A DNA stretch of 64,000 nt from Squalus acanthias (Eukaryota). The first letter of the stretch is position 1. Every line of letters starts with the position of its first letter. Below are positions 1-64,000 of this stretch, piece after piece. The notes below the pieces were generated by a model. The model had not been told where the DNA came from, ran no database searches, and worked only from the letters and a program-made list of their open reading frames with translations. The stretch spans positions 124,684,001 to 124,748,000 of the forward strand of contig CM059431.1 in NCBI GenBank assembly GCA_030390025.1. Direction: 5' to 3'. The translations under genes were made by a program, and so were the position numbers.

Positions 1-1518
1 GATAAAGACAGGATGCAACCTGTTTGCATTTGTGACAATAGCAAAAGATATGAGTGCTGGAATCGTTTTCCATGCACAAGTAAGGACCATTGTACTGGGC
101 AATCGAAGGCCCATCCAGACACATCAATACACAAATACCCCCACGGCTCTACAATGAGAGAGACATCGACGGGTGATTAAGCAAGCATTCGGGGGCCCCC
201 AAAACCCAGCCAGGGGAGGCTCCTAGCCGGTTCAACAATAGGGAAAACATTAACGGGTAGTTGGCCAGTTTCAGGTGCTACCGAAACCCGTTAAGGAAAG
301 AATCGCCCCATGCTGGGAGTTTTGAGTGCCAATATTATACAAAGGACAAACATTAAGATTTGGGTGGGAGATAAGGGAACACAGCACTATAACTATAGTG
401 AACAAATGTCCATCGCTCTTATTCTCTTATCTCGCTGCTGACTGCTGAGGGTTTATTCTCTTATTCCCTTGATTCGACTCCTGACACGCTCGATCGCGGG
501 CTGAAGCTCTTCTCTAGGGCTGGACTCTGTTGACTCTGGACTTTTAGCCGTACTGGACGGTTATTTGAATGTTAGGTGGAGCTCAATCGGAATGAGCCGC
601 CTCGACAAGGGCAAGTGACCGGGTGCACCATCCCGAGAGTCGGTAAACGGTGTCTGGACCCGAAGGCCCAACAAGACAAGACGAAATGACAAGAAAAGAA
701 GAATCCACGTGCCGCCGCGGTCAGTAAACCCCGACCGCGCCCGAAAATATAGGACCCACTTCTTGAATTCTACAGGTTATTGCACGAACCGGTTTTTGGG
801 TCCATCGAACTCCTCACAACAACAAGAAAGACTCTTCTTTGAATTCTACCGACAACTGGTGTCGGTACAGGAAGACTTTTCTTTGAGTTCTACAGCCGGG
901 CCCGAGTTCTGTCGAGTTCTTCATGACAACGGGGAGCCCGGCCTGCTTGCCGCAGCAGCGAAGATAAACAAGTGGGGCACAGAGACCCCTCCAAACACGT
1001 GACAGTCAGGCGCTGCAGCGAAACGAGCCGAGTGCCTGACTTTAAAATTCTCTGAAGTATCACGAGTGGTGAGCATGTTTCCCGATCCTACAAATCTAGA
1101 TGTAGTGTAGGTATTGATAGGGGAGGGTGGTTTTATTAAGGATAAAGTATAATATGTTCCCCTTTTTACGATGTGCCGTGCGTTCTTCATTACCATAGAC
1201 CAAGCTTTATGAATGTATGTATACTTGTACTCTCGTTAATTTGCACCTATGACATGTACTTCATGATTTTGGAAGCTATGCAATAAAGATTTCCATTTCG
1301 TACTATTCAACCGGGTCTATTTGAGTTTTTCTCTGCATTACTGCTCTCGCACGTAAGTCCAGTGTTAGAACCGTAAGGGCGAGGGGGTCGAACCACTCAC
1401 AGGTGCTTATTGCAGCAAGGCTGGCCGGAGACCAGAGCAAGCAATAGCATTAGACAACGAAGGCCCAACCTCGCACCAGCACCGTCTGTGATACAAGCAC
1501 GCCAAAAAAACCCTGACA
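1..1518 (+). repeat. 5' LTR of copy A (partial)
   Basis: Ends ...CCCTGACA, then GAAAA and PBS; AATAAA at 1282-1287; homologous to 61347-62991. Confidence 0.92.
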
Positions 1519-1522
1519 GAAA

Positions 1523-3346
1523 ATGGCGACCGCGGCAGGACATTGGCAGCGAGAGAGTAATGTTTTAGACCCTGGTGCGAATAGGCGAAATGTGATGGAT
1601 GAGAGGGTAGCCGACTATGTGTTTGGGAAGGTTAACTTAACCAAAAGGTGGATAAGTGACCTGCTGATGGATAAGCGTCCGCTAGACGCCGCTATCAAAT
1701 GGACAGGCAGTAAAGAGCATAAGAAGTCGGTAGAGAAAGCGGTCTGGCTGATGTGCTACAAGAAGCAAGTCCAACTTTCGGACCAGGTCACTGTGGCACA
1801 GGCAGCTCAGATCAGGGATTTGGAAGTTGAGATGGAGGAAAAGATCACGGGAGGACAGAAACTCATTGCATCATTGAATGCGTTACATCAGGAACGCCAG
1901 ATAGTAGCCAACCACCATGAGGCAAAAATTGATTACCTAGAGTGTCAGGTCACGGAAGCGAAATTAAACGAGGGTAAGATTAGAGAACGGTGTGCCTGCC
2001 TAGCTAACCAGATAAAAGCCCAAGAAGAAAGCTTGAAGTGAGTTAGGGCGGCATATAAGATGGCCCTCGAGGATAGGCATGATGGAGCCGACCACAGTGA
2101 TTGCCAGAAGGAGATAGGGAACCTAAGAGAGGCCCTGAATAATCCAAACGGCTTGGTGTGCCTCATCAGCCCGTCAGCAAACCAGCCACAGGTGGGTAGG
2201 GAATTCCCAAAATCCCTACCAGACAAAGCAGAGGAGGTATTTGCCACTGCGCCCTCCGCGCCACCCAGCTATTCGGCAACCTGGGTAAGGGAGGAAGTGG
2301 TGGAAATAGAAAAGGAGGTTCCCGAGGTAGGACAATCCCCGGAGGTAGAGTCGAAACCGGGACCGATGTGTCCGCTCCGAGGTCACAAGAGAGGTCCGGG
2401 TGGGGCAAATGGGGCAGAGGGGGATGTCCTGAACCAGCTTGTATTGCCTCACAGCTCACACCAGCTGAGAGCAATGATTAGTCATGTACGGAAGCAGTCC
2501 GAGTCAGACGACCCTTCCGTACACTTTAGGGAGGTAGAACAGACCGCAGCAATTAATGGCTGCGACGATGAGGAAAAGACCAAAATGTTGCTGTTCTCCT
2601 CAGATAGCTCGATCCTCCAGTGTCTCTCAGACGAGAGCAAGAAGGGAAATAAAACCTATGAGGAGTTAAGGGACGAGGTCCTAGAAGTGTTAGGGGCGGA
2701 TGACGAAGGTCCGTTCGTCAGATTGAGTCAAACCCTACAGATGGAGGGAGAACCCCCGAAGGTTTTCGCCGACAGACTGTGGCCAGTATACCAGCGTAGC
2801 TGCCCAGGTGTGCCACGCGCCACCGCCTGGGACGGTGCCGGTTTAACTCATTTGCTCAGGTGTTTAGTAGCCAACAGCTTGCCAGCCGTCAGGGAGCAGG
2901 CCAAAGCGTGGTTTGATCCCACAAACCCCGCCACAACAGAGGAGTCTGTCCTAAATCGACTCACCATAGGGTATCGTAACACTAGGAGCACGGGAGCGCG
3001 TCCCCTTAAGGGAAAGGTGCATGAGGCATGGCACGCAGCCCCGGCTCAAAAGGAGTGGCATCAGGAGGGAAACCGCGCCCCACAAGCCAGTGGTGCTTGT
3101 TACGGGTGCGGGATGACAGGTCACTGGCGTAAGAACTGTAGGAACCCCTGGAAGGACCCCAGGGATAAAAATCCCGCAGCCCGAACCCAAGTGCCTGTCT
3201 CTGAGAGAGGAGCTGGTGTGCCTATCCATCCCGATGCGATAGAATCAATGTTGGGAGCTATGCGGTTCCTTATGATTTTGCAAGGAAGGGTGGCAGTCGC
3301 AACCGGCCTCACAGATGCCACAACCCCGTCCACCAGTACCCAATGA
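1523..3346 (+). pseudogene. gag: gag of copy A, premature TGA at 2039-2041
   Basis: ORFs 1523-2041 and 2060-3346 are in one frame and colinear with intact Gag of copy B; PSAPPSY motif; CYGCGMTGHWRKNC zinc knuckle. Confidence 0.9.
1524..1541 (+). promoter_or_regulatory. Primer-binding site, tRNA-Arg(UCG), overlapping the gag ATG (1523)
   Basis: TGGCGACCGCGGCAGGAC is complementary to the vertebrate tRNA-Arg-UCG 3' end ...GUCCUGCCGCGGUCG-CCA (recalled sequence). Confidence 0.85.
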
Positions 3347-17956: not shown

Positions 17957-17976
17957 ATGTCAGCTGTGGCTCAGTT

Positions 17977-18007
<31 letters not shown>

Positions 18008-21737: not shown

Positions 21738-21942
21738 GTGTTGTGGAGCCAAGAGGAGCTCTCCTACTCCACCTGGTGTGTTGTGGAGCAAGGAGGAGCT
21801 CTCCTACTCCACCTGGTGTGTTGTGGAGCCAGGAGGAGCTCTCCTACTCCACCTGGTGTGTTGTGGAGCAAGGAGGAGCTCTCTTACTCCACCTGGTGTG
21901 TTGTGGAGCCAGGAGGAGCTCTCCTACTCCACCTGGCTCCAC
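21738..21942. repeat. Minisatellite, 5 copies of a 40-bp unit
   Basis: Unit TTGTGGAGC(C/A)AGGAGGAGCTCTCCTACTCCACCTGGTGTG at 21741, 21781, 21821, 21861, 21901. Confidence 0.95.
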
Positions 21943-30799: not shown

Positions 30800-32100
30800 T
30801 GTGGTTAGTCACCAGGCACGAGTGGGCTGCAGCCAGGGCAGGGGGAAAGGGTAGCACAGGTGCCAGCTCCACGGAGGGCGAGGTCGCACACAGGTTCTGC
30901 TGCACAGGACTCAGATGTGGACTTTGATGGGGTGGTCTACAGAAGAATGCTGATGGGTTTGCACAACAGAATGCTTGGTGAAGTGGCAGGCCTGCCAGAA
31001 AGCCTGAGTGCAATGTCAAGGAGCATGGAGGAATCCGGCACCTACCTTACACACGGCTTTGTGCAGAGCTGCAGGCCAGTGTCTCACCACGTGCAGATCC
31101 CACCTCTAATCTATCTTCTAAACTATGTGGAGTGTCAGTATCTGAGCTGATGGCTGCGCGTGTGAAATCAAGTGACGGTGCTGTGTCTTCATCATTAGTG
31201 TCTTGGTGCTCTTATATTAGTGATCCTCCACCAGTGCCTGGCCAGGTATCAGTTCTTATCTATCTGAAAGGAGAAAGGCACAAGGGTAAGGTGGTGCTGA
31301 GGGGAAAGGGAGAAAGTAAGAGGTGCATGCTTACATCATGTGCAGCTTGTAAATCAGAAGAGATTGTGGGATGAGGGGGAATTGAGATGTGAGAAGGAGG
31401 ATTACATCTGAGGATACTGGCATCTTGTATTCTTTCAGACCCGCCGCTGGCCATGGACTCAGCGATGGCCCTCCCAATAATGGCCAGCACCATCTTCTCC
31501 ATCGGGGTCTGGTTATGCAGGTGTGCCTGTCCCATGCCGGTTGGGTGCTGCTGGCACCAGTTGTGAGCCATCTTGTCCTGCGAGAGAAAGGGAAGTGTGT
31601 CAGTGAGTGTGGTGCAATGTGTTTGGGTGATATGCCATTCATATTTGAATAGCTGACAGTGTGTGCAAGCTGTGAGATCTGGGTGTGAGGCTTGCAGAAG
31701 TGGTAAGTGCCTGAGGGTGAGGTGAAGCTAGGAATGTGAGGTATGAGTCATATTTGGTAGAGATTGTTGATAGATGAGTGATACGGGTGTGGTGCATTGA
31801 GCAGTATGTGAGGCTAGTGATGCAGATGGTGGGATATAGCATTGGAAGCTGAATTCACTGACCTTGACCACGCGTGTGAGGTCATTAAACTTCTTCCTGT
31901 ACTGCGTCCAGGTCCTCAGGGCTATAGTGCTGGCATTCACAACGGCTATCTGCTCCCATTAGATTTTACGAATTTGCCTGGAGGGCCTCCTGGAACCCCT
32001 GTAGACACAGGACCTCTCTCCTCATTTTCACCTCTTGCACCAAGGCCTCCACTGCTGCATCAGAGAACCTTGGAGCACGCTCTCTCACCTGTTGTGACAT
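30800..32100 (-). mobile_element. Decayed Harbinger-derived element with intron-containing Myb/SANT-like gene
   Basis: RTWTQYRKKFNDLTRVVK|gtcagt exon end; later exon PMEKMVLAIIG. Confidence 0.65.
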
Positions 32101-35060: not shown

Positions 35061-35074
35061 GGAACATCTCCCTC

Positions 35075-35600
35075 TTGGCTGATCTTCTACCTTAACTCTA
35101 CTTTCCTGTACTATCCCCATATCCCTTGATTCCCTTAATATCCAAAAATCTATCGCTCTCTGTCTTGAATATACTCAACGACTGAGCCTCCACAGCCTTC
35201 TGGGGTAGAGAATTCCAAAGATTCACCACCCTCTGAGTGAAGAAATGTCTCCTCATCTCAGTCCTAAATGGCCGACCCCTTATTCTGAGACTATGACACC
35301 TGGTTCTAGACTTCCCAGCCAGGGAAATCATCCTCCCTGCATCCATCCTGTCAAGCCCTGTAAGAATTTTGCATGTTTCAATGAGATCACCTCTCATTCT
35401 TCTAAACTCTAGAGAATATAGGCCCAGTCTACTCAATCTCTCCTCATAGTACAATCCCCCCAATCCCAGGAATCAGTCTGGTGAACATTCATTGCACTCC
35501 CTCTATAGCAAGTATATCCTTCCTTAGGTAAGGAGACCAAAACTGTACACAATACTCCAGGTGTGGTCTCACCAGGGCCCTATATAATTGCAGTAAGACA
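35075..35600 (-). mobile_element. CR1 LINE 3' fragment
   Basis: YEERLSRLGLYSLEFRRMRGDLIE..WNSLP. Confidence 0.9.
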
Positions 35601-38587: not shown

Positions 38588-40177
38588 TGTAAGGGATACT
38601 CTCCTGACCCTGCGTGTCTCGTAACCTGTGAGGTTCACGCGGCTCTGTGCAGCCTGTATGTCAGTGCGGGTCTAGGCCTGGTCTCCAGCCAGTCTGGGAA
38701 CACTAGACACCCCTGTGAGTGGTTCGAATCACTCTCCCTTACGGTTCTAGACACTGGACTTAGATGCGAGAGCAGTAATGGAGATAAAACTCATGTAGAC
38801 TTGGTTTGAACGGTACGAAATGGAAAATCTTTATTGCATGATACTTAAAATTATGAAATACATGTCATATGCACAGATTAATGACAGTACAATCTTACAA
38901 ACAGTTATAATCACTCTTAGGGAAACGAGGAACGACCAGCACAACGTAAATAGGGCACACATTACAAATATCCTTACTTTAAACCCTCCCCTATCAATAA
39001 CTATCCTAAAACTAGCTTCGTAGGATCCCGAGACTCATGCTCACCACTCGTAATAACTCGGAGAAATCCCGAATAGCTGATCGGATGTTTTTCACCGCAG
39101 CACCCACGTGTTGGTCAGGAGATCTCCTGGTCCCACTTGTTTACTGCTTCTGCTGCTCGGTCAGTCGGCTGGACCGTCCGCTGTAGTGAAGACCTCTGTT
39201 GGTGGACTTTACAGTTCAGTCGAGGAGCACCGTTGTCAATATCATTGATACGATGTGTTTGCACAGTCCAGTTATCGTCGATGCAATATGTCTTGTTAAA
39301 GAAGAAAACTTCGTTGTCAAGAAGACTTGGCTGATCGACCTACAGGCGCGGTCGGGATTTACTGACCGTGGCGATGGATAAGGTCTTCTTCTCTTCTCCT
39401 CTCATCTCATCTCATCTCATCTCATCTCATCTCATCTCGGGCCTTTGGTTCCGCTGCCAGCTACCAACATAGGTCTTTGCAACAGTCTTTTACCCAGGAG
39501 CAGCCACGATGATAACAGCAGCAAGCGGCAAGAGTCACGAACACGAGGCAAGAGAGCGAATGGACGGTTTGGGGCCTGCAATTATAGTGCACAGTTCTTC
39601 CGTTTCCCGCCCAACTACAATGTCCATTCTTTTGTTTAAGGTTTGGCGCCCAAAAATGTCCTGTATGGGTGATCTCTGTCCTTAATGGGTTTCGGGGCTA
39701 CTCCTGAATGTTTGAGTACCTGTTAATATTTCTCCCATTGTTAAATCGGTCGGTGTTCCCCCTGGAGGGGTTTGGGGCTTCCAAGTGTCCTGTATAACTA
39801 CCTGCTAACGGCTCTCTCATCGTAGAGCCGTTGGGAGTTTACATATTAATGTCCTTTGGATGGGCCCTTGATGGCTTTCCTTTGTACCTGGGAGACCGAT
39901 CCCAGTATCGATGTTTATACTGCAAACCCATAATGTCCTGTGTATTGTCTTCACTGTGCTGAATCGTTATCGATCCTGCAAAAATGTTTATTGGAACGCC
40001 ATCTTGTCTGCCTGCCGAAAAGTCTCGAATGTTCTGTCACGCGGTGCGGCGGCCATTTTACAGGCTGCTTGTGTCCAATTTAAACCTGACAGCATTCCGC
40101 TGAAATAAAAGCTGTTTTGAACGAAACTTGTGTTTTCTCCTTATTAAAATGAAATCGCGATAATTGCGAATTCTACA
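38588..40177 (-). repeat. 3' LTR of copy B (1590 bp)
   Basis: Near-identical to 49514-51109; AATAAA on minus strand at 38830-38835; (CTCAT)7. Confidence 0.97.
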
Positions 40178-40189
40178 GTCCCTCCTGTT
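40178..40189 (-). promoter_or_regulatory. Polypurine tract of copy B
   Basis: Minus strand AACAGGAGGGAC directly precedes the TGTAGAA start of the 3' LTR. Confidence 0.75.
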
Positions 40190-43234: not shown

Positions 43235-46200
43235 TTAAATCCTGAGAAGGCTGCTGCGAGCTCTTCCCGACGGTGGGAGGGCACTGACCCTTCCCTCTGA
43301 TCTGCCGCAGCCTGTTACTGCTTCGATGTGGCCTGTCTCTACCCGGGTTATCTTAACCTGAAACTTACGCCCTGGGGCAGCCTGTGGACCTGACCACGTC
43401 TTCCTGGGCTGGGGTGCTCTGCTTGACCTACGGGGAATTGCTATGGGCGGGGGCTCCGTGACGGACGGACCGGGTCCCGAGACCTTCAACGGAATGACCT
43501 GGGGTTCCATCACAGGCGCCAGCCCCGCCTCCGCTGACTCCGCCTCCCTAACCTCGGGGCTGGCAGTTCGGGGCCCCGCCCTGCTCGGCCCAGCAGGCGG
43601 CCCTTCACTCGCGAACTCTGCCTCCCCTGAGGACTGGACGTTCAAAGCGGGCGGCCACACCTCTGGGAACCACATAGCGGCTGGCCCGGCCTCCTCTAGC
43701 TCCTTCCTCCTGCTGTCGGGACCTGCAGCTTGTGTGTCCACCCCGTATGGATCTCTACCTAACGGCCCCAATCCTTCCAGACCGTTCCTCTGAAACCACC
43801 CGTCATCATCACTATGCTCATCTGCACTATCCTCGTCTGACCAGGGTACCCTGGGGTCCTCGTCATCTAACCCCCAACTCCAGAAAAACGCTGCATGATC
43901 GTCCGGGATGTCCCTTCCCCTGATGCAAGCTGCTACGCCTGCCTGTGTGCCTTGTGGTCCTACCTGGGGCTGTGTTTTCCCATTGGCGGGATTTACCCCT
44001 GTAGTTTTCCCTTGCGCACCCGGCTGGTACAGTTTACATTGGTTTATGTGGAACCACTTAGTGCGCCGAGGTACTTTTACGGCGTAAACCATGGGACTTG
44101 CCTTGTCTACAATGTTGTAGGGTCCCATATACAGTGGTTCCAGACTCCCTACTCTGGCGTAGTTTCTGACCATGACCTGGTCTCCTACTTCCCACTCCCG
44201 CGTTTTGCGGGGTTCCAGCAACAAGCGATTGCCCTGGTGCTGCCTTCCCATGTTCCCAGCCGCCTGCTCATAAACTTGCTTCAGGCGCTCCAAGAGAGTT
44301 TGGGCGAACTTGTCCCTGCTGATCTCTTGAAGCTGACCCTCAGTGAGCACCGGGGCTAGCACATGGGTGGGGGTTCGCATGAGCCTGCCGGTCATTACCT
44401 CGTGCGGGGAGTACCCCGTACTTTTTGACTGACTGGCCCGGACCCCCATGAGGACTAAAGGCAGAACTTCCGCCCATTTTTGGGGCGAGTTCCTAGTCTC
44501 TTTCCTCAATTTCTCCTTCAGGGTCCGGTTCATACGTTCAACAATCCCGGATGACTGGGGATTGTGTGCTACGTGCCACTTCCCTTCAATGCCCAAAAGC
44601 ATGAGGGTGTTCTGCATCACCTGGCCGGTGAAATGACTCCCTTGGTCTGACTCCACGAAACGGGGGAGTCCCCACCGCGAGAACACTTCCCGGACCAAGA
44701 TTTTTGCTGTACCCAGTGCCGTAGCTGTTCGACAAGGGAAGGCTTCCACCCACTTGGAAAACACATCCACCAGGACGAGGCAGTACTTATAACCTCCCTG
44801 GGTGGTGGGCAGGGGTCCTATATAGTCGATCTGTATCGACTGCCATGGTCCCTCTACCCTTCTTACGTGTCCCATGGGCACCTTCCTTTTCTGGGGGTCT
44901 GGGTTGTTTGCAGCGCACACAAGACAGTTTGCACAGAACTCGCGGACTTGTTCCCTGAGCCCTGGCCACCATCCCGCTTGCTCTACCCGTTGCCAGGTAA
45001 CCTCGGGCCCGGGGTGCCCTGCCCCTGGTCCCTCGTGAGCCAACTGGAGGAATTCCCTCCTGTGCTGCTGCGGCACAACCCACTGCTCCTCGCGGAACAG
45101 CATGCCTTCCTTAACTGAGAGGGTTGCCGTACTGTACGGACCTTCTACCTGCCTCCCCTCAGCAATCGTTTTTAGGACTGCTTTTAGGGCGGGATCCTGG
45201 GCTTGGACGGTCTTAAGGTCTAGGGGCAATGCTACCCTGGTGTTCCCGGTATTCCCGTCCCCACCTCGGACCGCTGCTATGGGTCCGGTTCTATAGGGGT
45301 TCCAGAAAGTACCGTCGCGGGCACCCTCCCTGGCTAGCGCATCCGCCTGCCGGTTGCCCTCCCCACGGGGCTCTGTGGAGGAGTGAGCTTTCACCTTATG
45401 GATGAAAATCTCCCCTTCCTCCCCTACTGCTGCTGCTAAGATCTTCTCCAGCAAGGGCTTTACCGTTAAAGGTCGCCCGTCCGCGGAGGTGTATCCACGG
45501 CGGGACCAAATGGCCAGGTATTCCGTACACGAATTGCAGGTGAACATACTGTCCGAGCAAATCGTGTATGGGGTTGGGAAAATGTCTGGGTGGGTTACCA
45601 CGTACACCACGGCAGACAGCTCAGCCTGCTGCGCGCTCATGGTGCTAGGGAGCTTGATCGCCAGGGCAAGGTCTGCCGCAGGGTCATAAACTCCACACCC
45701 TGTGAGTCGCTCGCCAGCAGATACTGTGCTAGACCCATCAACATAAATCTCGCGCCCAGTGGGATGTATCCCGGCCCGTAAACCTATGTTGACTTCCCAC
45801 ACCCCCTCCACCGAACACCGGTGGGCTGTACCGGGGTATACCAAATTGGCCGCAAGCCTGGGCTCGCAAAGACCTTTTACTCTGATGTCCAACTGGGAGA
45901 GAAGAAGGGTCCAACGCGCAATGCGTGCGCTGCTTACGGTCCCGTCTTTAATCCTCCCATCCAGAAGCATCTTAGTTGGTGTGTGATGTGTGAGGAGAGT
46001 GATGGGAGAGAGCCCTGTGAAGATCGCTGATCTTTTCACAGCCCAATGCGTGGCTAAAAGGTGCCTTTCGCAATTGGAAAAACTTCTCTCCACATCCGTT
46101 AATACCCTGGATGAATAGACAACCGGCCTCAGCTTGCCGTGACGCTCTTGGAGCAGCACGGCGCTTAAGCTGTCTCCGCTGGCAGCTACCTCCAGGAAAA

Positions 46201-47697
46201 ACTCCTTCCCCCCATCTATGGCCCCTAAGGCTGGCGCGGTCTGCAGATCCCTTTTAACTTCTCGAAGGCTGCTTGGCAGCCCTCGTCCCAAAGCCACTCC
46301 ACTCCCTTATGGAGGAGTCGGAGGAGCGGTGCCGCTGTGGCCGCATAATCCTCGATAAAATCCCTGCAGTAACCGGTCAGTCCCAAGAAGGACCTCACAC
46401 CCCTTACGTTGTTGGGAATCGGTAATTCTTGCACCGACTCCCTCCTTGCTTTGTCTATGGCTCTTTCCCCAGCGCGTAGGGTCAGTCCCAGGAATTTTAC
46501 TTCCTGCTGACCGATACGTGCTTTCTTTGGGTTTACTTTAAAACCCTTTCTCGCTAACAGCTCCAATAACTCGTCCAGCAGTGGTCCGTGCTCCTCCCTT
46601 GAGTCCGTAAATAGGAGCAAATCATCCACATACTGTACTATCTGATTGGGCTGACTAAACTCCTTTAAACTTCCTGCCATACACTGGTGAAAAATACTGG
46701 GGCTATTGTGGAAACCTTGTGGCAAACAGTTCCACGTGTACTGTTGCCCTTTAAACGTAAAGGCAAACTTGTACTGGTCCTCTCGCCGCAGCGGGATGGA
46801 CCAAAAACCGTTCGAGATATCCAGCACCGTGAACGTGGTCGCGGACGCTGGGATACTCCCTATTAGGTCAGCAACTGCTGCTACTGTGGGCGCGCAGGCG
46901 GGGATGTTACTGTTAAGGACTCTGTAGTCCACCGTGGCTCTCCACGAATTATCCGGCTTCCTAACCGGCCATAATGGGGAGTTCACGTGTGTGGCTATCG
47001 GCCTCAACACGCCCTGCTGCACCAAGGAAGACATTGCTGCCTCCATATCGGGTTCTGCTTCTTTGGGGAAGTTATACTGTTTTTGGGGTCGGGTCATGGG
47101 GTCCCCATCTACGCTGACCTCAAACCCGACCACCCTCCCACAATCGTGCTTGTGGGTTGCAAACGCGTGCATATTATCTGTCACGTACGTTTGCATGTCC
47201 GTTGGGACATCTGCGACCATAAGCCTGAGGTCGTAGCCTCCGGATGGCTGTACGGTACACAGGACCCCTGTTTCTTCCTCCCCTTGAATTACCATTACCT
47301 CGCCTTTTTCACCTTTAGCCCCCCAGAGACAGTGATTTCTGAGGTCCACGAGGATCCCGTGTCCCGCTAGCAGATCGGACCCGAGAATACCTCTTCCACC
47401 CCCCTTTTGCCATGCCATCAGTATACACTTCCACTTAATGCGAAGTGTCCCTAAACGAATGGATAGCGGGAGGGAAAACGTGCCAGCCTGTTCTTTCCCT
47501 GTGAACCCTGCTAGCGTGAATGGGACCTTGGTAGATAGCGGCGAGTCAAAAGGGTCATCTGTATGGATTATGGTGCAAGAAGCTCCCGTGTCCAACAGAT
47601 AACTGCCCTTTTGTTTCTCTACCTCCATCTCCACCACAGGTCGCCTCCACGCATCATAGCTGAGCGGACACAGGTAGACGGGCTGTGCTGGTTCTAG
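43235..47697 (-). CDS. pol: Pol (PR-RT-tether-RNase H-IN plus C-terminal extension), probably made by readthrough; single 1-bp frameshift at 46252-46255
   Basis: ORFs 46225-47637 and 43235-46297 join if one A is restored in GTTAAAAGGG (copy A has 5 A); catalytic motifs intact. Confidence 0.92.
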
Positions 47698-49509
47698 TCA
47701 TGGGGCACTATTAGACGGTCCTGCGGCACCTACGGGGCCGGTTGCGACCGCCACCTGTCCACGCGCATTCAAAACCATCTTGCGCATGACTCCTAACACT
47801 GCCTCGAGGTCTTCGGGAGAGGTGGGTACCTTTGCTTCCTTAGCCGGGACAGGCGCCTGGGCTCGGACCGCGGGATTTTTATCCTTGGAATCCTTCCAAG
47901 GGTTCCTGCAGTGCTTGCGCCAGTGCCCTGTCTTCCCACACCCGTAACAGGCATTACTTGCCTGTGGGGCGCGATTACCCTCCTGATGCCACTCTCTTTG
48001 AGCCGGGGCTGCGGGTCGTACCTCATGTACTCTTCCCTTAAAGGGACGTGTTGCCATACCCCTTATGTTACGGTAACCTAACGTGAGTCGATTCAAGACC
48101 GACTCTTCCGTAAGGTTGAGGTCATTGGGATCGAACCAGGCTTTTGCCTGCTCTCTAACGGCTGGTAAACTGTTGGCTATTATGCACCTAAGCCAATGAA
48201 CTAAAGCGGCGCCTTCCACATCTTCGCGTTCGGGCGCACCTAGACAGCTGCGCTCATATACTGGCCACAGCCTGTCGGCAAAAACCTTCGGGGGTTCTCC
48301 CTCCATCTGCACTGTCTGTCCCACTCTAGCAAACGGACCTCCGTCGTTCGCTCCCACTACTTCTAGGACCTCATTTTTCAATTCCTCGTAACTTTTATTA
48401 CCCCTCTTGCTATCGCCTGAGAGGCACTGAAGGACCGAGCTATCTAATGAGAACAGCAGCATTTTTGCTGTCTCCCCATCATCGCAGCCGTTGATGGCTG
48501 CGGCTTGCTCAACTTCCCTAAAATGTACGGAAGGGTCGTCTATCTCGGTCAGCTTCCTTACGTGGTTTATCATAGCCCTCAGCTGATGTGAACTGTGAGG
48601 CAACACCAGCTGTCCGAGGAGATCCCCCGGTTCTTCCCCACCGTTTCTGCTTGGGCCCCTTTTAATCCCCGTTACTGGATACAACGATCCCTTTTCTACC
48701 TCTTTTTCAACGGGCTCTTTCGCTTCTTCCGTTGCTTCCTCCCTAACCCAGGTTTCTGAATAGCTGGGTGGCGCGGAGGGCGCAGTGGCTACTACCTCTT
48801 CTGCTTTACTTGGTGGGGAATTTCTAAATCTCTCATTTACTAGCGGCTGGCGTGCCGACGGATTAATAAGGCACACCATGCCGTTCGCATTATTCACGGC
48901 CTTTTTGAGGCTCTCTATCTCTTTTTCGCAGGCGCTATGGTCGGCTCCCTGAAACTTATCCTCAAGGGCCAACTTATACGCCGACCTAACCCCCATTAAG
49001 CTCTCTTCTTGAGTTCTTATCTGGGCAGCTTGACGGTTACATCTTTCCTTCATCCTATTCTCGTTTAATTTTGCTTCAGTGATCTGGCACTCGAGATACT
49101 CTACCCTTGTTTTAAGGTAACTGGAGACTTCCTGGCTTTCCTGGCGTAACTCATTTAAACTCTTAATGAGCACCTCCCCTCCAGAAACCTTCTCCTCCAT
49201 TTCCTCCTCTAAATGCTTGATTCGAGCGGTTAGCGCTGTATTGGTCTGGTTTGAAATCTGGACCTGCCTTTTGTAGCACATAAGCCAGACTGCTTTCTCA
49301 ACTGCCTTTTTATGCTCCTTACTATCCGTCCACCTTTCAGCTGCCTCTAATGGGCTCTTATCCGCTAACAGTTCGCTTATCCACTTTTTCGTTAGATTAA
49401 CCTTTCCAAATACGTAATCCGCTATCTTTTCCTGCATCACATTTTGTACAGTCATTCCAAAATCTAACACACTACCCTCTCGCTGCCAATGTCCTGCCGC
49501 GGTCGCCAT
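47698..49509 (-). CDS. gag: Gag, 603 aa: coiled-coil N-terminus, PSAPPSY late domain, capsid-like region, one CCHC knuckle
   Basis: Open ORF from the ATG overlapping the PBS to TGA; CYGCGKTGHWRKHC. Confidence 0.93.
   Translation of the reverse strand: MATAAGHWQREGSVLDFGMTVQNVMQEKIADYVFGKVNLTKKWISELLADKSPLEAAERWTDSKEHKKAVEKAVWLMCYKRQVQISNQTNTALTARIKHLEEEMEEKVSGGEVLIKSLNELRQESQEVSSYLKTRVEYLECQITEAKLNENRMKERCNRQAAQIRTQEESLMGVRSAYKLALEDKFQGADHSACEKEIESLKKAVNNANGMVCLINPSARQPLVNERFRNSPPSKAEEVVATAPSAPPSYSETWVREEATEEAKEPVEKEVEKGSLYPVTGIKRGPSRNGGEEPGDLLGQLVLPHSSHQLRAMINHVRKLTEIDDPSVHFREVEQAAAINGCDDGETAKMLLFSLDSSVLQCLSGDSKRGNKSYEELKNEVLEVVGANDGGPFARVGQTVQMEGEPPKVFADRLWPVYERSCLGAPEREDVEGAALVHWLRCIIANSLPAVREQAKAWFDPNDLNLTEESVLNRLTLGYRNIRGMATRPFKGRVHEVRPAAPAQREWHQEGNRAPQASNACYGCGKTGHWRKHCRNPWKDSKDKNPAVRAQAPVPAKEAKVPTSPEDLEAVLGVMRKMVLNARGQVAVATGPVGAAGPSNSAP
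49491..49508 (-). promoter_or_regulatory. PBS tRNA-Arg(UCG) of copy B
   Basis: Minus strand TGGCGACCGCGGCAGGAC, 5 nt after the LTR end. Confidence 0.85.
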
Positions 49510-49513
49510 TTTC

Positions 49514-51109
49514 TGTAAGGGATACTCTCCTGACCCTGCGTGTCTCGTAACCTGTGAGGTTCACGCGGCTCTGTGCAGCCTGTATGTCAGTGCGGGTCTA
49601 GGCCTGGTCTCCAGCCAGTCTGGGAACACTAGACACCCCTGTGAGTGGTTCGAATCACTCTCCCTTACGGTTCTAGACACTGGACTTAGATGCGAGAGCA
49701 GTAATGGAGATAAAACTCATGTAGACTTGGTTTGAACGGTACGAAATGGAAAATCTTTATTGCATGATACTTAAAATTATGAAATACATGTCATATGCAC
49801 AGATTAATGACAGTACAATCTTACAAACAGTTATAATCACTCTTAGGGAAACGAGGAACGACCAGCACAACGTAAATAGGGCACACATTACAAATATCCT
49901 TAACTTTAAACCCTCCCCTATCAATAACTATCCTAAAACTAGCTTCGTAGGATCCCGAGACTCATGCTCACCACTCGTAATAACTCGGAGAAATCCCGAA
50001 TAGCTGATCGGATGTTTTTCACCGCAGCACCCACGTGTTGGTCAGGAGATCTCCTGGTCCCACTTGTTTACTGCTTCTGCTGCTCGGTCAGTCGGCTGGA
50101 CCGTCCGCTGTAGTGAAGACCTCTGTTGGTGGACTTTACAGTTCAGTCGAGGAGCACCGTTGTCAATATCATTGATACGATGTGTTTGCACAGTCCAGTT
50201 ATCGTCGATGCAATATGTCTTGTTAAAGAAGAAAACTTCGTTGTCAAGAAGACTTGGCTGATCGACCTACAGGCGCGGTCGGGATTTACTGACCGTGGCG
50301 ATGGATAAGGTCTTCTTCTCTTCTCCTCTCATCTCATCTCATCTCATCTCATCTCATCTCATCTCATCTCGGGCCTTTGGTTCCGCTGCCAGCTACCAAC
50401 ATAGGTCTTTGCAACAGTCTTTTACCCAGGAGCAGCCACGATGATAACAGCAGCAAGCGGCAAGAGTCACGAACACGAGGCAAGAGAGCGAATGGACGGT
50501 TTGGGGCCTGCAATTATAGTGCACAGTTCTTCCGTTTCCCGCCCAACTACAATGTCCATTCTTTTGTTTAAGGTTTGGCGCCCAAAAATGTCCTGTATGG
50601 GTGATCTCTGTCCTTAATGGGTTTCGGGGCTACTCCTGAATGTTTGAGTACCTGTTAATATTTCTCCCATTGTTAAATCGGTCGGTGTTCCCCCTGGAGG
50701 GGTTTGGGGCTTCCAAGTGTCCTGTATAACTACCTGCTAACGGCTCTCTCATCGTAGAGCCGTTGGGAGTTTACATATTAATGTCCTTTGGATGGGCCCT
50801 TGATGGCTTTCCTTTGTACCTGGGAGACCGATCCCAGTATCGATGTTTATACTGCAAACCCATAATGTCCTGTGTATTGTCTTCACTGTGCTGAATCGTT
50901 ATCGATCCTGCAAAAATGTTTATTGGAACGCCATCTTGTCTGCCTGCCGAAAAGTCTCGAATGTTCTGTCACGCGGTGCGGCGGCCATTTTACAGGCTGC
51001 TTGTGTCCAATTTAAACCTGACAGCATTCCGCTGAAATAAAAGCTGTTTTGAACGAAACTTGTGTTTTCTCCTTATTAAAATGAAATCGCGATAATTGCG
51101 AATTCTACA
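49514..51109 (-). repeat. 5' LTR of copy B (1596 bp)
   Basis: Differs from the 3' LTR by one extra A near 49902 and one extra CTCAT unit. Confidence 0.97.
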
Positions 51110-56112: not shown

Positions 56113-56601
56113 ATTGAGTCATAGAGTTATACAGCACAGAAAGAGGCCCTTGGGCCCATTGTGTCCGCGCCGGCCATCAAGCCCTGTCTATTTTAATCCC
56201 ATTTTCCAGCACTTGGTCCGTAGCCTTGTATGCTATGGCATTTCAAGTGCTCATCTAAATGCTTCTTGAATGTTGTGAGGGTTCCTGCCTCTACCACCCT
56301 TTCAGGCAGTGAGTTCCAGATTCCAACCACCCTCTGGGTGAAAAAGTTTTTCCTCAAATCCCCTCTAAACCTCCTGCCCCTTACCTTGAAACTATGCCCC
56401 CTGGTTATTGACCCCTCTACTAAGGGGAAAAGTTCCTTTCTATCTACCCTATCTATGCCCCTCATAATTGTGCACACCTCAATCAGGTCCCCCCTCAGCC
56501 TTCTCTGCTCCAAGGAAAACAACCCCAGCCTGTCCAGTCTCTCTTCATAGCTGAAGCGCTGAAGCCCAGGTAACATCCTGGTGAATCTCCTCTGCACCCT
56601 T
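56113..56601 (-). mobile_element. CR1 LINE 3' fragment
   Basis: RVQRRFTRMLPG..TRGHSFK..WNSLP; tail repeats. Confidence 0.9.
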
Positions 56602-57165
56602 TGACATATTTCTACAATAGTTACACTATTTATATCCAAATGAGCTTTTTATTACAAGCTAGACATCTTGCTATTTTCAGGGCATGAAAACACTTCGGGA
56701 CCAGCTTTATTTTCCATTGAGACTACAGCTTTTCAATCTCTGCACCTTGTTTCATCAGGATCTTAGTCCCAGCCTATCAATGAAAGAGTCCATCAAGCTT
56801 GGCATAATCCTTTGTAAGCAACTTTATTGCTTTGTGATTTGACTCCAAAACTGTTCCATTTTGAATATAAGCCATTCTGTAAATTAATATTCATCCTTTT
56901 TTGTGCATTTGTAGTTGAGGAGTGAATGGCAGATTTTTCCAGACTTTTGGATATTTGTTATAATTTGTTAATAGTCCATATATTCCAATCCCTAAGGGTG
57001 TGTACGCGCTGTGTACATACCCATAGGGACATTGAAATGCCGGTTTCAGGCATGCCAAGCGCATGAGCTAAAAACCGGCATTTCCGATCTGTCAAGAATG
57101 CTCTTGACAGATCGGACGCCTGCCCTGGAGAAGGGCCTCTGCGGGGGGAGAGTTCCGCTTTCTGG

Positions 57166-60100
57166 TGTAAAGTTTCGCAATTATCGCGATTCAAAATAAC
57201 ATAAGAGAAGCAGATTCATTTGATCAGTTTTATTAAACGAAATGCTGTCCTGATAATAAAGGACACCGAAGCCTGTAAAATGGCCGCCGCGCATCGTGGC
57301 AGAAGCTTCCAGAAACACAGTGGGCAGACAAGATGGCGTCGAATATACATTCAGTATAAGATTGGATCATACTCGGTAAACATTGATAAAGACAGGATGC
57401 AACCCGTTTGCATCTTAAACAATAGCTAAGATATAAGTGCTGGAATCGTTTTCCTATGCACAGTAAGGATCATTGTACTGAGCAATCGAAGGCCCATCCA
57501 GACACATCAATATACAAATACCCCCCTGGCTCTACAATGAGAGAGACATTGACGGGTGATTAAGTCGGTATTCGGGGGGCCCCAAAAACCAGTCGAGGAG
57601 ACGATTCATACACATCCTGGCTGGGTCAACAATGGGGAAAACATTAACGGATAGTTGGCCAGTTTCAGGTGCTACCGAAACCCGTTAAAGAAGATAATCG
57701 CCCCATGCTGGGAGTTTTGAGTGCCAAATATTACACAGAGGACAAACATTAAGATTTGAGCAGGAGATAAGGAGGACACATCACTATAACTATAGAGAAC
57801 AAATGTCCATCGCTCTCTTATTCCCCGGGCTGACTCTTATTCGCTTGCCTCTTCATGAACTCGCTTGACTTGTGGGCTCTTGATTTTCTCTCTGGACTTT
57901 GTTGACTCTTGACTCTTAGCCGTACTGGTCGGTTATTCGAGTGTTGGGTGGAGCTCAATCGGTACGAGCCGCCCCGACAAGGGCAAGTAACAGGGTGCAC
58001 CATCCCAAGTGTCGGTAAACGGTGTCTGGACCCGGAGGCCCGAGGAGACGAGACGAGAAGAAGACGAGAAGAAGACGAGAAGAAGTTTCACGTGCCGCCA
58101 CGGTCAGTGAACCCCGACCGCGCCCGAAAAATATAAATACAGGACTCTTCTTTGAGTTCTACCGACTACAACCTGTGTCGAACACAGGAAGACTCTTCTT
58201 TGAATTGTATCCGAGTTCCGTCGAGTTCTTCATGACAACAGGGAGTCTGGCCTGCTTTTCGCAGCAGCGAAAGTAAACAAGTCGGGTGCAGAGACCCTTC
58301 CAAACACGTGACAGTCAGGCGCTGCAGCGAAACGAGCTGAGTGCCTCACTTTAAAATCTCTGAAGTAACACGAGTGGTGAGCATGCTTTCCGATCCTACA
58401 AATCCAGACGTAGTGTAGGTATTGTTAAGGGAGGGTGGTTTTAAATAAGGTTAAGAGATAATGTGTTCCCCTTTTTACGATGTGCCGTGTGTTCTCCATT
58501 TCCATAGACCAAGCTTTATGAATGTATGTATACTTGTACTATCTTTGATTTGCGCCTATGACATGTATTTCATGATTTTAGACGCCATGCAATAAAGATT
58601 TCCATTTTGTTCTATTCAACCGGGTCTATTTGAGTTTTTCTCTGCATTACTGCTCCCTGCACCTAAGTCCAGTGTTAGAACCGTAAGGGCGAGTGGGTCG
58701 AACCACTCACAGGTGCTTATTGCAAAAAGGCTGGCCGGAGACCAGAGCAAACATTAGTATAGGCAACAAAGGCCTAACCTCGCACCAGCACCGTCTGAGA
58801 CACGCCCCCCTTACAGAAAATGGCGACCGCGGCAGGACTCTGGCAGCAGGAGAGTAATGTTTTAGACCCTGGTTTGAATAGGTGAAATGTGATGGATGAG
58901 AAGGTAGCCGACTATGTGTTTGGGAAGGTTAACTTGACCAAAAAGTGGATAAGTGACCTACTGATGGATAAGCGTCTGCTAGACGCCGCCATCAAATGGA
59001 CAGGCAGTAAAGATCATAAGAAGTCGGTAGAGAAAGCGGTCTGGCTGATGTGCTACAAGAAGCAAGTCCAACTTTCGGACCAGGTCATTGCAGCACAGGC
59101 AGCTCAGATCAGGGGATTGGAAACTGAGATGGAGGAAAAGGTCACGGGAGGACAGAAACTCATTGCATCATTGAATGCGTTACATCAGGAACGCCAAATA
59201 GTAGCCAACCACCACGAGGCTAAAATTGATTACCTAGAATGTCAGGTCACGGAAGCAAAATTAAACGAGGGAAGGATTAGAGAACGGTGTATCCGCCTAG
59301 CTAACCAGATAAAATCCCAGGAAGAAAGCTTGAGGGGAGTTAGGGCGGCATACAAGATGGCCCTCGAGGATAGGCATGAGGGAGCCGACCACAGTGTTTG
59401 CCAGAGGGAGATAGAGAACCTAAGGGGGTCTATGAATAAGGCAAACGGCTTGGTGTGTCTCATCAGCCCGTCAGCGAGCCAGCCACAGGTGGGTAGGGAA
59501 TTCCCAAAATCCCTACCGGAAAAAGCAGAAGAGGTATCTACCACTATGCCCTCCGCGCCACCCAGCTATTCGGCAACCTGGGTAAGGGAGGAAGTGGTGG
59601 AAATAGAGAAGAAGGTTCCCGAGGTAGGACAATCCCCGGAGGTAGCGTCGAGACCGGGACCGATGTGTTCGGTCCGAGGTCATAAGGGAGGCCCAAATGA
59701 GGCAGATGGGGCAGACAGGGATGTCCAGAACCAACTTGTATTGCCCCACAGCTCACACCAGCTGAGAGCAATGATTAGCCATGTACGGAAGCTGTCCGAG
59801 TCAGAAGACCCTTCCGTACATTTTAGGGAAGTAGAACAGACCGCAGCGATTAATGGCTGCGACGATGAGGAAAAGACCAAAATGTTGCTGTTCTCTTTAG
59901 ATAGCTCGATCCTTCAGCGTCTCTCCGACGAGAGCAAGAAGGGGAATAAAACTTATGAGGAGTTACGGGACGAGGTCCTAGAAGTGTTAGGGACGGATGA
60001 CGAAGGTCCGTTCGTCAGATTGAGTCAAACCATACAGATGGAGGGAGAACCCCCGAAGGTTTTCGCCGACAGACTGTGGCCAGTATACCAGCATAGCTGC

Positions 60101-61346
60101 CCAGGTGCGCCAGAGCGCAGCTATCTGCACGGCGCCGGGAAAGCTCATTGGCTCAGGTGCATGGTAGCCAACAGCTTGCCAGCCGTCAGGGAGCAGGCCA
60201 GAGCGTAGTTTGATCCCACTAACCCCGACACAACGGAGGAATCTGTCCTGAATCGACTCACCATAGGGTATCGGAACACTAGGAGCACGGGAGCGCGTCC
60301 CCTTAAGGGAAAGGTGCATGAGGCAAAGCCCGCAGCTCCGGCTCAGAAAGAGTGGCATCAGGAGGGAAATCGCGCCCCACAAACCAGTGGTGTTTGTTAC
60401 GGTTGCGGGAAGACAGGTCACTGGCATAAAAACTGCAGGAATCCCAGGAAGGATTCCAGGGAAATAGCTCCCGCAGTCCGAACCCAAGCGCCTGTCTCTG
60501 AGAAAGGAGCTGGTGTGCCTATCCATCCCGATGCGATAGAATCAATGTTGGGAGCCATGCGGTCCCTTATGATTTCGCACGGGAAAGTGGCAGTTGTTAC
60601 CGGCCCCACAGATGCCACAAACCCATCCACCGGTACCCAATGACTAAAGCCCGCGCAGCCCGTTTACCTGTGTCCGCTCAGCTATGATGCGTGGAAAAGA
60701 CCCCTGGTAGAGATGGAAGTAGAGAAGCAGAAGGGTAGTTACTTGTTGAACACGGGAGCTTCATGCACCGTGATCCATACAGATAGCCCCTTTGACTCAC
60801 CACTGTCTACCAAGGTCCCATTCACATGAGCGGGGTTCACGGGAAAAGAGCAGGCTGACGCGTTCTCCATTCCGCTCTCCATTCATTTAGGAGCACTCCA
60901 CACCACATGGAAGTGCATACTGATGAAATGGCAAGAGTGGGGTGGCAGAGGTATCCTCGGATCGGATCTCCTAGCGGAACACGGGATCTTCGTGGACCTT
61001 AGGAATCACTGTCTCTGGGGAGCCAAGGGTGGGAAAGGCAAGGTAGTTGTAATCCCACGGAAGGAAGGAAAAGGGGCCCTGTGTACCATGAAGCCATCCG
61101 GAGGTTACGACCTCGGGCTTATGGTCGCGGATGTCCCAACGGACATGCAAACGTACGTGTCAGATAATATGCACGCGTTTGCAACCCACAAGCACGATTG
61201 TGGAAGGGTTACCGGGTTTGAGGTCAGCGTAGACGGGGACCCCATGACCCGGCCCCAAAAGCAGTATAACTTCCCCAAAGAAGCAGAACCCGACATGGAG
61301 ACAGCAATGTCCTCATTGGTGCAGCAGGGCGTGTTGAGACCGATAG
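57166..61346 (+). mobile_element. Copy C of the retrovirus-like family: LTR 57166-58815, PBS 58821-58838, gag and 5' pol; interrupted by copy D
   Basis: LTR TGTAAAG...TTACA; gag with stops at 58883 and 60206; protease D-to-N (LLNTG) and stop at ~60827. Confidence 0.92.
58820..60643 (+). pseudogene. gag: gag of copy C (two premature stops)
   Basis: Colinear with Gag of copies A and B; ends TGA-CTA. Confidence 0.9.
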
Positions 61347-64000
61347 TGTAAAGTTTCGCAATTATCGCGATTCGAAATAACGAGATAGAAGCAGATACGT
61401 TTGATCAGTTTATTTAAACAAAATGCTTTCATGATTAAACAGGACACAGAAGCCTGTAAAATGGCCGCCGTGCATCGTGGCAGAAGTTTCCAGAAGTACA
61501 GTGGGCAGACAAGATGGCGTTCGAATAAACATTTTCGATAAGCACTGATAAAGACAGGATGCAACCTGTTTGCATTTGTGACAATAGCAAAAGATATGAG
61601 TGCTGGAATAATTTTCCATGCACAAGTAAGGACCATTGTACTGGGCAATCGAAGGCCCATCCAGACACATCAACACGCAAATACCCCCACGGCTCTACAA
61701 TGAGAGAGCCATTCTCGGGTGATTAAACAAGTATTCGGGGGCCCCCAAAACCCAGCCAGGGAGGCTCCGAGCCGGTTCAACAATGGGGAAAACATTAACG
61801 TGTAGTTGGCCAGTCTCAGGTGCTACCGAAACCCGTTAAAGACAAGAATCACCCCATGCTGTGAGTTTTGAGCGCCAATATTTCACAAAGGACAAACATT
61901 AAGATTTGGGCGGGAGATAGGGGAACACAGCACTATAACTATAGACAACAAATGTCCATCGGTCTCTTATTTTCTCTTATCTCTGCGGACTCTTGACTGG
62001 GGCTGAACTCTGCAGGACGAGCAGCATTCTGTGTTTCTCTGGACTCTGTTGACTCTGGACTTTTAGCCGCACTGGACGGTTATTCGAATTGGAACGAGTC
62101 GCCCCGACGAAGGCCAGTGACCGGGTGCACCATCCCGAGAGTCGGTAAACGGTGTTTGGACCTGAAGGCCCAACAAGGCGAGACGAAATGACAAGAGAAG
62201 AAGAAGAATCCACGTGCCGCCGCGGTCAGTAAACCCCGACCGTGCCCGAAAATATACGACCCATTTCTTGAACTCTACAGGTTACTGCACGAACTGGTCG
62301 AAGACTCTTCTTTGAATTCTGCCGGTAACTGGTGTCGGTCCAGGAAGACTTTTCTTTGAGTTCTACATCCGGGCCCGAGCACTGTCGAGTTCTTCATGAC
62401 AACGGGGAGCCCAGCCTGCTTGCAGCAGCAGCGAAAGTAAACAAGTGGGGTACAGAGACCCCTCAAAACACGTGACAGTCAGGCGCTGCAGCGAAACGAG
62501 CCAAGCGCCTCACCTTAAAATTCTCCGAAGTATCACGAGTGGTGAGCATGTTTCCCGATCCTACAAATCTAGATGTAGTGTAGGTATTGATAGGGGAGGG
62601 TGGTTTTATTAAGGATAAAGTATAATGTGTTCCCCTTTTTACGATGTGCCGTGCGTTCTTCATTACCATAGACCAAGCTTTATGAATGTATCTATACTTG
62701 TACTGTCGTTAATTTGTGCCTATGACATGTACTTAATGATTTTGGACGCTATGCAATAAAGATTTCCATTTCGTACTATTCAACCGGGTCTATTTGAGTT
62801 TCTCTCTGCATTATTGCTCTCGCACCTAAGTCCAGTGTTAGAACCGTAAGGGCGAGTGAGTCGAACCACTCACAGGTGCTTATTGCAACAAGGCTGGCCG
62901 GAGACCAGAGCAAGCAATAGTATTAGGCAACGAAGGCCTAACCCCGCACCAGCACCGTCTGCGATACAAGCACGACACACAACCCCTTACAGAAAATGGT
63001 GACCACGAAGGGACTCTGGCAGCGAGAGAGTAATATTTCAGACCCTGGTGTGAATAGGCGAAATGTGATGGATGAGAGGGTAGCCGACTATGTGTTTGGG
63101 AAGGTTCACTTAACCAAAAGGTGGATAAGTGACCTACTGATGGATAAGCGTCCGCTAGACATAGCCATCAAATGGACAGGCAGTAAAGAGCATAAGAAGT
63201 CGGTGGAGAAAGCGGTCTGGCTGATGTGCTACAAGAAGCAGGTCCAACTTTCGGACCAGGTCATTGTAGCACAGGCAGCTCAGATCAGGGACTGTGAAGT
63301 TGAGATGGAGGAAAAGGTCACGGGAGGACAGAAACTCATTGCATCCTTGAATGCGTTACATCAGGAACGCCAGATAGTAGCCAACCACCATGAGGCTAAA
63401 ATTGATTACCTAGAGTGCCAGGTCACGGAAGCAAAGTTAAACGAGGGTAGGATTAGAGAACGGTGTGCCCGCCTAGCTAACCAAATAAAAGCCTAGGAAG
63501 AAAGCTTGAAGGGAGTTAGGGCGGCATACAAAATGGCCCTCGAGGATAGGCATGAGGGAGCCGACCACAGTGTTTGTCAGAAGGAGATAGGGAGCCTAAG
63601 AGAGGCCCTGAATAAGGCAAACGGCTTGGTGTGCCTCATCAGCCCGTCAGCAAACCAGCCACAGGTGGGTAGGGAATTCCCAAAATCCCTACCAGACAAA
63701 GCAGAGGAGGTATTTGCCACTGCGCCCTCCGCGCCACCCAGCTATACGGCAACCTGGGTAAGGGAGGAAGTGGTGGAAATAGAGAAGTAGGTTCCCGAGG
63801 TAGGACAATCCCCAGAGGTAGAGTCGAGCCCGGGACCGATGTGTCCGCTCCGAGGTCACAAGAGAGGCCCGAACGCAGCCAATGGGGATGACGGGGATGT
63901 CCTGAACCAGCTGGTATTGCCTCACAGCTCACACCAGCTGAGAGCAATGATTAGCCATGTACGGAAGCTGTCCGAGTCAGACGACCCTTCTGTACACTTC
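61347..64000 (+). mobile_element. Copy D, nested in the RT region of copy C; LTR 61347-62991, variant PBS 62997-63014, gag runs off the window
   Basis: Pol of C breaks at GVLRPI into TGTAAAGTTTCGC; gag with TAG stops at 63494 and 63788. Confidence 0.92.

Follow-up and report, generated by a model that had tools for sequence, protein, structure and literature searches.

A gag-frame ATG overlaps the tRNA primer-binding site in an endogenous retrovirus family of the shark Squalus acanthias

The provirus and its genes

The window, which is the whole 64,000-nucleotide stretch of Squalus acanthias DNA analysed here (contig CM059431.1, positions 124,684,001 to 124,748,000), carries a minus-strand provirus at 51109-38588 (Table 1). 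Its 5' and 3' LTRs align without a mismatch and with 6 gap columns, and the element is flanked by TCCC, a target duplication of 4 bp. Because the 3' LTR copy ends at 38588 with the TCCC duplication, the end of the 5' LTR at 49514 is fixed. As judged from its sequence, the provirus is very young. A GATGA microsatellite in U3 (50309-50377) is probably behind the 6-nt difference in LTR length. The element has the parts of an endogenous retrovirus (ERV): paired TG...CA LTRs, the target duplication, a tRNA primer-binding site (PBS), a purine tract, gag, protease, RT, RNase H and integrase in this order, and an env-like ORF. The ends of the provirus are asymmetric, with 5 nt between the U5 CA and the PBS (49509-49513) and about 2 nt between the purine tract and the U3 TG (40178-40179). 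The usual gap between LTR and PBS is 2 nt.

Table 1. Features of the provirus and of the other three junctions, in window coordinates
Feature	Position	Strand	Remark
5' LTR, 1596 bp, TG...CA	49514..51109	-	contains the entire 5' untranslated leader
Probable major splice donor, GAGTG/GTGAGC	49966..49976	-	intron starts at 49971, ~460 nt upstream of the PBS
Poly(A) signal, AATAAA	49756..49761	-	downstream of the donor; same order in the other three copies
U5 hairpin, TTCGAA loop	49643..49660	-	like motifs in B and F copies
5-nt spacer GAAAA, LTR end to PBS	49509..49513	-	last A is the A of the ATG
Candidate gag start codon	49507..49509	-	context GAAA-ATG-G, A at -3, G at +4
PBS, 18 nt, tRNA-Arg(UCG)	49491..49508	-	partly encodes Gag residues 1-7 (MATAAG)
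24-codon N-terminal extension, predicted disordered	49438..49509	-	second in-frame ATG at 49455
Met25	49435..49437	-	conserved clade-wide; invariant column in the homologue alignment
gag ORF, 603 aa	47698..49509	-	TGA-CTAG at its end; pol continues in this frame
pro-pol (protease, RT, RNase H, integrase)	43235..47697	-	frameshift near 46230-46300 breaks the frame
env-like ORF, 783 aa	40600..42951	-	splice acceptor 42965/42964 just upstream
Short purine tract ahead of 3' LTR	40179..40186	-	from sequence
3' LTR	38588..40177	-	from LTR comparison
Copy 1 junction: spacer, ATG 1523, PBS, extension to Met25	1518..1597	+	
Copy 3 junction: ATG 58820	58815..58894	+	stop at codon 22, in frame
Copy 4 junction: ATG 62996, PBS of second tRNA-Arg(UCG) isodecoder	62991..63070	+	peptide MVTTKG

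By sequence and predicted fold, Gag consists of a helical head, a long coiled coil, a capsid-like domain and a CCHC knuckle. The top fold match of the capsid-like domain is the MLV capsid, weak at E 3.9e-3, and the knuckle (CX2CX4HX4C) occupies residues 521-534, with a PF00098 match on the homologue P0001. TGA and then CTAG stand at the end of gag with pol in the same frame, at 47697-47700 (-) and also at 3344-3350 (+). This border presumably resembles a leaky UGA readthrough context, and the in-frame gag-TGA-CTAG-pol layout suggests readthrough. When PDB sequences are ranked by similarity to the RT, foamy PR-RT chains come first (E 1.6e-53) and MLV-type RT follows. The env-like ORF is assigned only by its position, an RQRR site and hydrophobic ends; it matches 0 Pfam families at E<=0.01, and a PDB sequence search gave no significant match. 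Its N-terminal part (42951-42600 (-)) has a non-significant match to a junction adhesion molecule (E 0.99).

Other repeats surround the provirus. The region 57165-64000 holds two truncated proviruses of group A, which are separated by about 4.2 kb, both carry an LTR of their own and differ in PBS type. A fragmented Gypsy-type element at 14963-19378 (+) was recognised by eye from ORFs that resemble gag, RT, RNase H and integrase; the one at 14963 likewise opens with MAT, but this ATG lies outside any PBS and was discarded as a parallel case. Penelope-like RT with a GIY-YIG-type tail is seen by eye at 23384-24754 (+) and 31560-32093, CR1-like LINE fragments at about 20000-21600, 26800-27800, 32500-35600 and 56200-56600, and a tandem repeat of about six units with a 40-nt period at 21689-21936.

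The junction between LTR, PBS and gag

The original prediction placed the gag start codon inside the PBS in four copies of the element, at a junction LTR-CA/GAAA-A-TGG. This sequence layout is borne out by the same reading at all four junctions, ...ACA/GAAA-A-TGG, although these copies, as members of one family, are no independent observations. The ATGs, at 1523(+), 49509(-), 58820(+) and 62996(+), each lie in the gag frame 72 nt from Met25. An open stretch from this ATG into gag held in part: the frame to Met25 is kept in 4/4 copies and is open in 3/4, but copy 58820 is stopped in frame at codon 22. A Gag start further upstream in the LTR was rejected, since only 2-18 codons are open there and no ATG stands ahead of the PBS ATG. 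In group A, an out-of-frame ATG-TGA overlaps Met25 (ATGTGATG; 49437-49444 (-) and the corresponding positions of copies 1, 3 and 4). It is absent from group B and could be due to chance.

Genome-wide, exact matches to the PBS are preceded by A at 2706 sites and by C, G or T at 129, a ratio that mostly mirrors the amplification of a few young subfamilies. Controls with the reversed pattern gave 0 matches. A second type of PBS has 443 matches in a count that covered a preceding A, G or T, and among the first 100 of them 90 follow A and 10 follow T (eye count). The ATG junction is found in 58/60 near-identical loci, the other 2 being without a pattern match; this set includes the window's own copy twice and says little.

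The nearest named Gag homologues are those of skate and catshark. Their proteins (52% identity in skate, 36-38% in catshark) begin with MATTKG or MATAAG/MATAVG and have a Met at position 25. Among database proteins that cover this region at the N-terminus, called starts coincide with the PBS-encoded peptide in P0001, P0031, P0033 (skate), P0009, P0016, P0036 (catshark) and P0002, and in P0034 the peptide is present behind a longer called start. The called start is Met25 in P0032 and lies 14 residues ahead of Met25 in P0003. Such database starts come from gene callers, which always begin at a Met. Three remote Gag proteins (24-25% identity) have unrelated starts. Further homologue searches, one of them limited to lengths of 30-76 aa, added nothing, and atlas searches returned only generic gag and RT clusters.

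The 5' leader and the probable splice donor

The claim that no leader follows the PBS is right in that none lies between PBS and gag. However, a leader exists inside the LTR, in R-U5, and the donor is probably located there. The premise behind the claim, that donor and leader sit between PBS and gag, applies to orthoretroviruses only; in foamy viruses both lie in R-U5 (PMC2761275, PMC3694450).

The donor motif is present in 4/4 window copies, and the order of donor ahead of poly(A) motif recurs, under a loose pattern, in 9/12 longer loci. Contigs of four runs gave 11 joints, one of them with GT..AG ends; we guessed these runs to be RNA, although none of the runs that contain the element is recorded as such. 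The joint links position 49971, within the 5' LTR, with 42964, which lies 13 nt ahead of the env ATG, and comes from 1 contig of 1/4 runs (X1) with 23 letters on its short side, so that it weakly shows use of the donor. Because the donor lies upstream of the PBS, spliced env RNA would be without the PBS and the gag start.

Between donor and PBS there are 6, 11, 10 and 10 ATGs in the four window copies, and plain scanning to gag is therefore unlikely. The end of U5 is poor in ATGs: the last 150 nt of 14 related loci hold 9 ATGs as against about 32 expected and 18-34 in controls (hand sum), and 9/14 of these loci have none. Comparison of the leader fold with shuffles gave z=-0.34, and no shunt hairpin was seen. 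The U5 hairpin with the TTCGAA loop is possibly a docking element for the primer tRNA.

The upstream AUGs (uAUGs) would also be removed if gag were translated from an mRNA spliced from the donor in R to an acceptor at the LTR end (CCCTTACAG/AAAATG). Such splicing would explain the adjacency of start and PBS; it is compatible with initiation at the PBS AUG and competes with the shunt step only. Consistently, the donor lies upstream of every uAUG found, and a CAG stands 4 nt ahead of the ATG in 4/4 window copies. However, the G is missing from the spacers of lineage B (TAA, TAAA), which does have the ATG, the putative acceptor has a weak pyrimidine tract (7/12), and the G may belong to the integrase end. 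A donor-to-U5 joint is not among the 11 joints, and these contigs cannot count as absence. We regard a spliced gag mRNA as rather improbable.

Frame conservation in ATG-bearing and ATG-less lineages

Junctions were collected at 104 loci: 4 from the window, 40 of the 129 without a preceding A, 20 of the 2706 with A, 20 of 70 ranked by P0002 and 20 of the 443 of the second type. Six had no gag match and were left out (L076, L088, L091, L140, L152, L166), so that 98 were analysed. The distance to Met25 is exactly 72 nt in 59/61 copies with A before the PBS, and 54/61 combine this distance with a stretch that has no stop; those that do not, 7 in number, are scattered individual copies. The spacer in ATG-bearing copies is mostly 3-5 nt long and varies in length, but its last A is kept. 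In contrast, only 3/37 ATG-less copies are both in frame and open. Their spacings to Met25 are 68 nt (10 copies), 69 (3), 70 (14), 71 (4), 72 (3), 75 (2) and 88 (1), and are common to the members of each subfamily. Among copies of the C/D/E/F group, 28/33 have a substitute in-frame ATG exactly 30 nt before Met25, and those shown as examples carry a purine at -3. The first ATG past the LTR is in the gag frame in 59/61 ATG-bearing and 34/37 ATG-less copies (93/98 overall).

Because frame and openness are locked where the ATG exists and have decayed where it is absent, the PBS ATG is probably used as a real start. At the level of lineages the contrast is 4/4 against 1/7, with p=0.015 when database proteins are included and p=0.083 for this genome only, in a small test on related lineages. 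In a quick Gag tree, the ATG-less subfamilies fall within the same clade: C, D, E and F form one branch with a support of 100, and G and H fall outside this branch. Monophyly of the ATG-bearing rows together with P0003 is not rejected by an AU test (p=0.31), and both a single gain of the ATG and a gain followed by loss are compatible with the sequences.

The predicted conservation of the frame across relatives is seen in the ATG-bearing lineages, where it is locked, but subfamilies of dozens of ATG-less copies correspond in part to the frame disruption that was named as evidence against it. C-type copies, which are ATG-less, account for about 70 of 150 scored matches at 82-100% identity. ATG-less sister subfamilies thus replicated, which suggests that overlap of start and PBS is dispensable. 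Deeper relatives with T before the PBS make up subfamilies G (L154, L170, L180) and H (L148, L181). In subfamily G, an in-frame start 8 codons ahead of the core Met reads Met-Gly-Gly-Lys, possibly a site of myristoylation.

The N-terminal extension

Use of the PBS ATG would add 24 residues to Gag. Divergence of this extension was compared among 5 representatives of clusters with at least 2 copies, with 4 singletons left out. Changes at the three codon positions number 14/13/16 in the extension and 20/15/45 in the core. The pN/pS ratio of the extension is 0.28-0.56 within A, as against 0.05-0.13 in the adjacent core, and 0.74-0.83 between A and B, as against 0.29-0.51. Strong constraint at the protein level was thus not found by codon position or pN/pS, which suggests that the extension is weakly constrained. 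In 5/5 representatives the extension has no stop in the gag frame, whereas there are 3 in the other two frames. Synonymous divergence within A is 0.09-0.44 in the extension and 0.19-0.94 in the core, hinting at overlapping RNA signals in group A. In the predicted model, residues 1-28 have low confidence and the fold begins near residue 21.

Some of these data fit a Gag start at Met25, or at Met19, with the PBS ATG as a by-product of the A-rich spacer and the stretch behind it open by descent or RNA constraint. Met25 is invariant across the clade, the predicted fold starts only at about residue 21 behind a low-confidence segment, changes are nearly even over codon positions, and the lower synonymous divergence within A points to an RNA constraint such as dimerization or packaging. 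However, initiation at Met25 leaves unexplained why spacing decayed only in lineages without the ATG and why these lineages hold another in-frame ATG at a constant distance of 30 nt. Furthermore, under the scanning rule an upstream AUG in strong context is normally used. On balance, Met25 as the start is unlikely, and initiation at the PBS AUG remains the reading that we prefer.

The primer tRNA and the first Gag codons

All 18 nt of the PBS (49508-49491) are complementary to the 3' end of tRNA-Arg(UCG). The pattern of this gene end has 435 matches in the genome, and ARAGORN called Arg-TCG at 4/4 loci scanned. Tandem arrays with a period of about 1.62 kb are present at G000:C26 (~39.0-41.9 Mb, L062-L072), and in each sampled unit a tRNA-Arg(UCG) gene with an intron is accompanied by one for tRNA-Ser(GCU). 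The PBS of copy 62996 corresponds, with one mismatch, to a second tRNA-Arg(UCG) isodecoder whose pattern has 1 gene match. Thus 435 tRNA matches of the first pattern stand against 1 of the second, yet 443 proviral sites carry the second PBS.

The two PBS types differ at 4 bases that distinguish the tRNAs, and this changes Gag residues 4-5 from AA to TK (MATAAG vs MATTKG). Both types coexist in 2/9 clusters linked at 93% identity; the sampling of types was stratified, and only their co-occurrence is informative. MATTKG and MATAAG starts are also both present in skate homologues. The original prediction had the first six Gag codons re-templated from the tRNA in each replication cycle. The exchange of PBS types within 93%-identity clusters, and also in skate, supports such re-templating of the first codons, except that the tRNA does not template the A of the ATG.

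The overlap could also be a selected switch, in which the annealed primer tRNA or its 3' fragments mask the start codon and destine the RNA for packaging; amplification of lineages A and B may have profited from such a switch. By geometry, two bases of the AUG and the 16 nt behind them would be hidden under an annealed primer, and ATG-bearing sites outnumber ATG-less ones by 2706 to 129 among exact PBS matches. In accessible text, 22-nt tRNA 3' fragments are described as repressing retroelements post-transcriptionally at the PBS (10.1101/2025.05.12.650695). However, ATG-less lineages replicated, and exact-match counts favour young copies. The primer is mainly annealed during assembly in the retroviruses studied. 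Moreover, an annealed primer would hinder scanning to any downstream AUG, which would make an overlap unnecessary, and folding of 8 junction windows (z +0.39 to -1.70) predicted no structure that sequesters the AUG. We consider a selected switch very doubtful.

A proposed foamy-style mode of gag initiation

The element is likely to be a young ERV of foamy style, in which ribosomes would initiate at whichever AUG comes first behind U5; for A and B, this is the AUG of the PBS. All of its 5' leader, at least 460 nt of R-U5, would be contained in the LTR, where the splice donor would precede the poly(A) signal. On unspliced RNA, ribosomes would pass 6-11 uAUGs, most likely by shunting or internal entry, by analogy with prototype foamy virus. 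Translation would then begin at the first AUG after U5 in every lineage. In A, B and the skate and catshark relatives, this AUG would consist of the last A of the spacer and the UG of the primer site. Gag would thereby gain a loosely constrained extension of 24 residues, whose first codons would be recopied from the primer tRNA in each cycle. Selection would keep the frame open because the AUG is read, while the sequence of the peptide would matter little. In the sister lineages, the start would have shifted to a site 8-15 codons before Met25, followed by decay of the sequence directly downstream of their PBS.

Comparison with known systems

In prototype foamy virus (PFV), the accessible text describes a major splice donor that lies in R, ahead of the poly(A) signal (PMC3694450), at +53 of a 345-nt R-U5 that contains short upstream ORFs and is followed by 101 nt to gag, which is reached by ribosome shunting (PMC2761275). 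Foamy virus cis signals are reported to extend into gag (PMC5035957). The shark element resembles PFV, as far as these sources describe it, in a probable donor ahead of the poly(A) signal within the LTR leader and in the long R-U5 with uAUGs, but the distance from U5 to gag is 101 nt in PFV (PMC2761275) and 4 nt here. Other features differ from those of foamy viruses. The primer is tRNA-Arg and not tRNA-Lys1,2, which is usual there, with exceptions; the shark Gag has a CCHC knuckle whereas Spumaretrovirinae Gag is without a Cys-His knuckle; and pol follows the gag UGA in frame whereas Spumaretrovirinae Pol is made from its own spliced mRNA. The primer of the snakehead retrovirus is also tRNA-Arg. 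As read from its sequence, the shark ERV has a foamy-like 5' end, yet its knuckle, tRNA-Arg primer and gag-UGA-pol layout misfit Spumaretrovirinae.

A start codon in an RNA element with a second role has a parallel in hepatitis B virus, whose epsilon contains the core AUG, and an ATG within a PBS may also arise in plant LTR elements. Ty1 of S. cerevisiae (Pseudoviridae) has, in the accessible text, a 53-nt UTR and a PBS at nt 95-104 within GAG (PMC5454406). The shark PBS likewise lies inside the gag reading frame, where its translation is predicted from the frame lock. However, the Ty1 AUG lies about 40 nt upstream of a 10-nt PBS and Ty1 has no env, whereas here the start codon is partly the complement of the tRNA CCA end.

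The shark ERVs of class III, foamy-like or snakehead-retrovirus-like type (CmiFLERV and CmiERV lineage I), compared by their accessible descriptions, share cartilaginous-fish hosts and an RT nearest to that of foamy viruses (PMC5512871, PMC4422223), and the same text gives no description of the PBS or start codon of these shark elements. Lokiretroviruses, as described in the accessible text, share gag-pol-env with LTRs, a coiled-coil-rich 5' ORF and an RXXR site in env (PMC7947760), but the shark env has no match at E<=0.01 to PF00523, the Mononegavirales fusion protein that Lokiretrovirus Env resembles. Lokiretrovirus Gag starts are not of the PBS type among the 4 listed, and neither 'shark' nor 'Chondrichthyes' occurs in the accessible text of PMC7947760.

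In the mainly open-access literature searched, no gag start codon that arises within the PBS was found to be reported, and none is described in the accessible text of PMC1142308, PMC12440569, PMC5902531, PMC5512871, PMC5210030, PMC9040795, PMC10699275, PMC7947760 or PMC4422223. By this literature, a coding PBS is already known from Ty1, whereas a start codon within the PBS would be new.

Implications

The broadest reading combines three elements for the whole elasmobranch clade: a gag AUG made from the complement of the tRNA CCA end, an N-terminus rewritten by the tRNA pool, and an off-switch in which primer or fragment directs the RNA to packaging. It is improbable that all three hold together. 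If initiation at the PBS AUG is true, the family would represent a retrovirus without untranslated space behind its primer site, and the first residues of a viral protein would be set by a host tRNA gene and would change with the primer isodecoder. The clade, with starts inside the PBS in some lineages and downstream of it in others, would contain its own controls for gating of genomic RNA translation by primer tRNA or its fragments.
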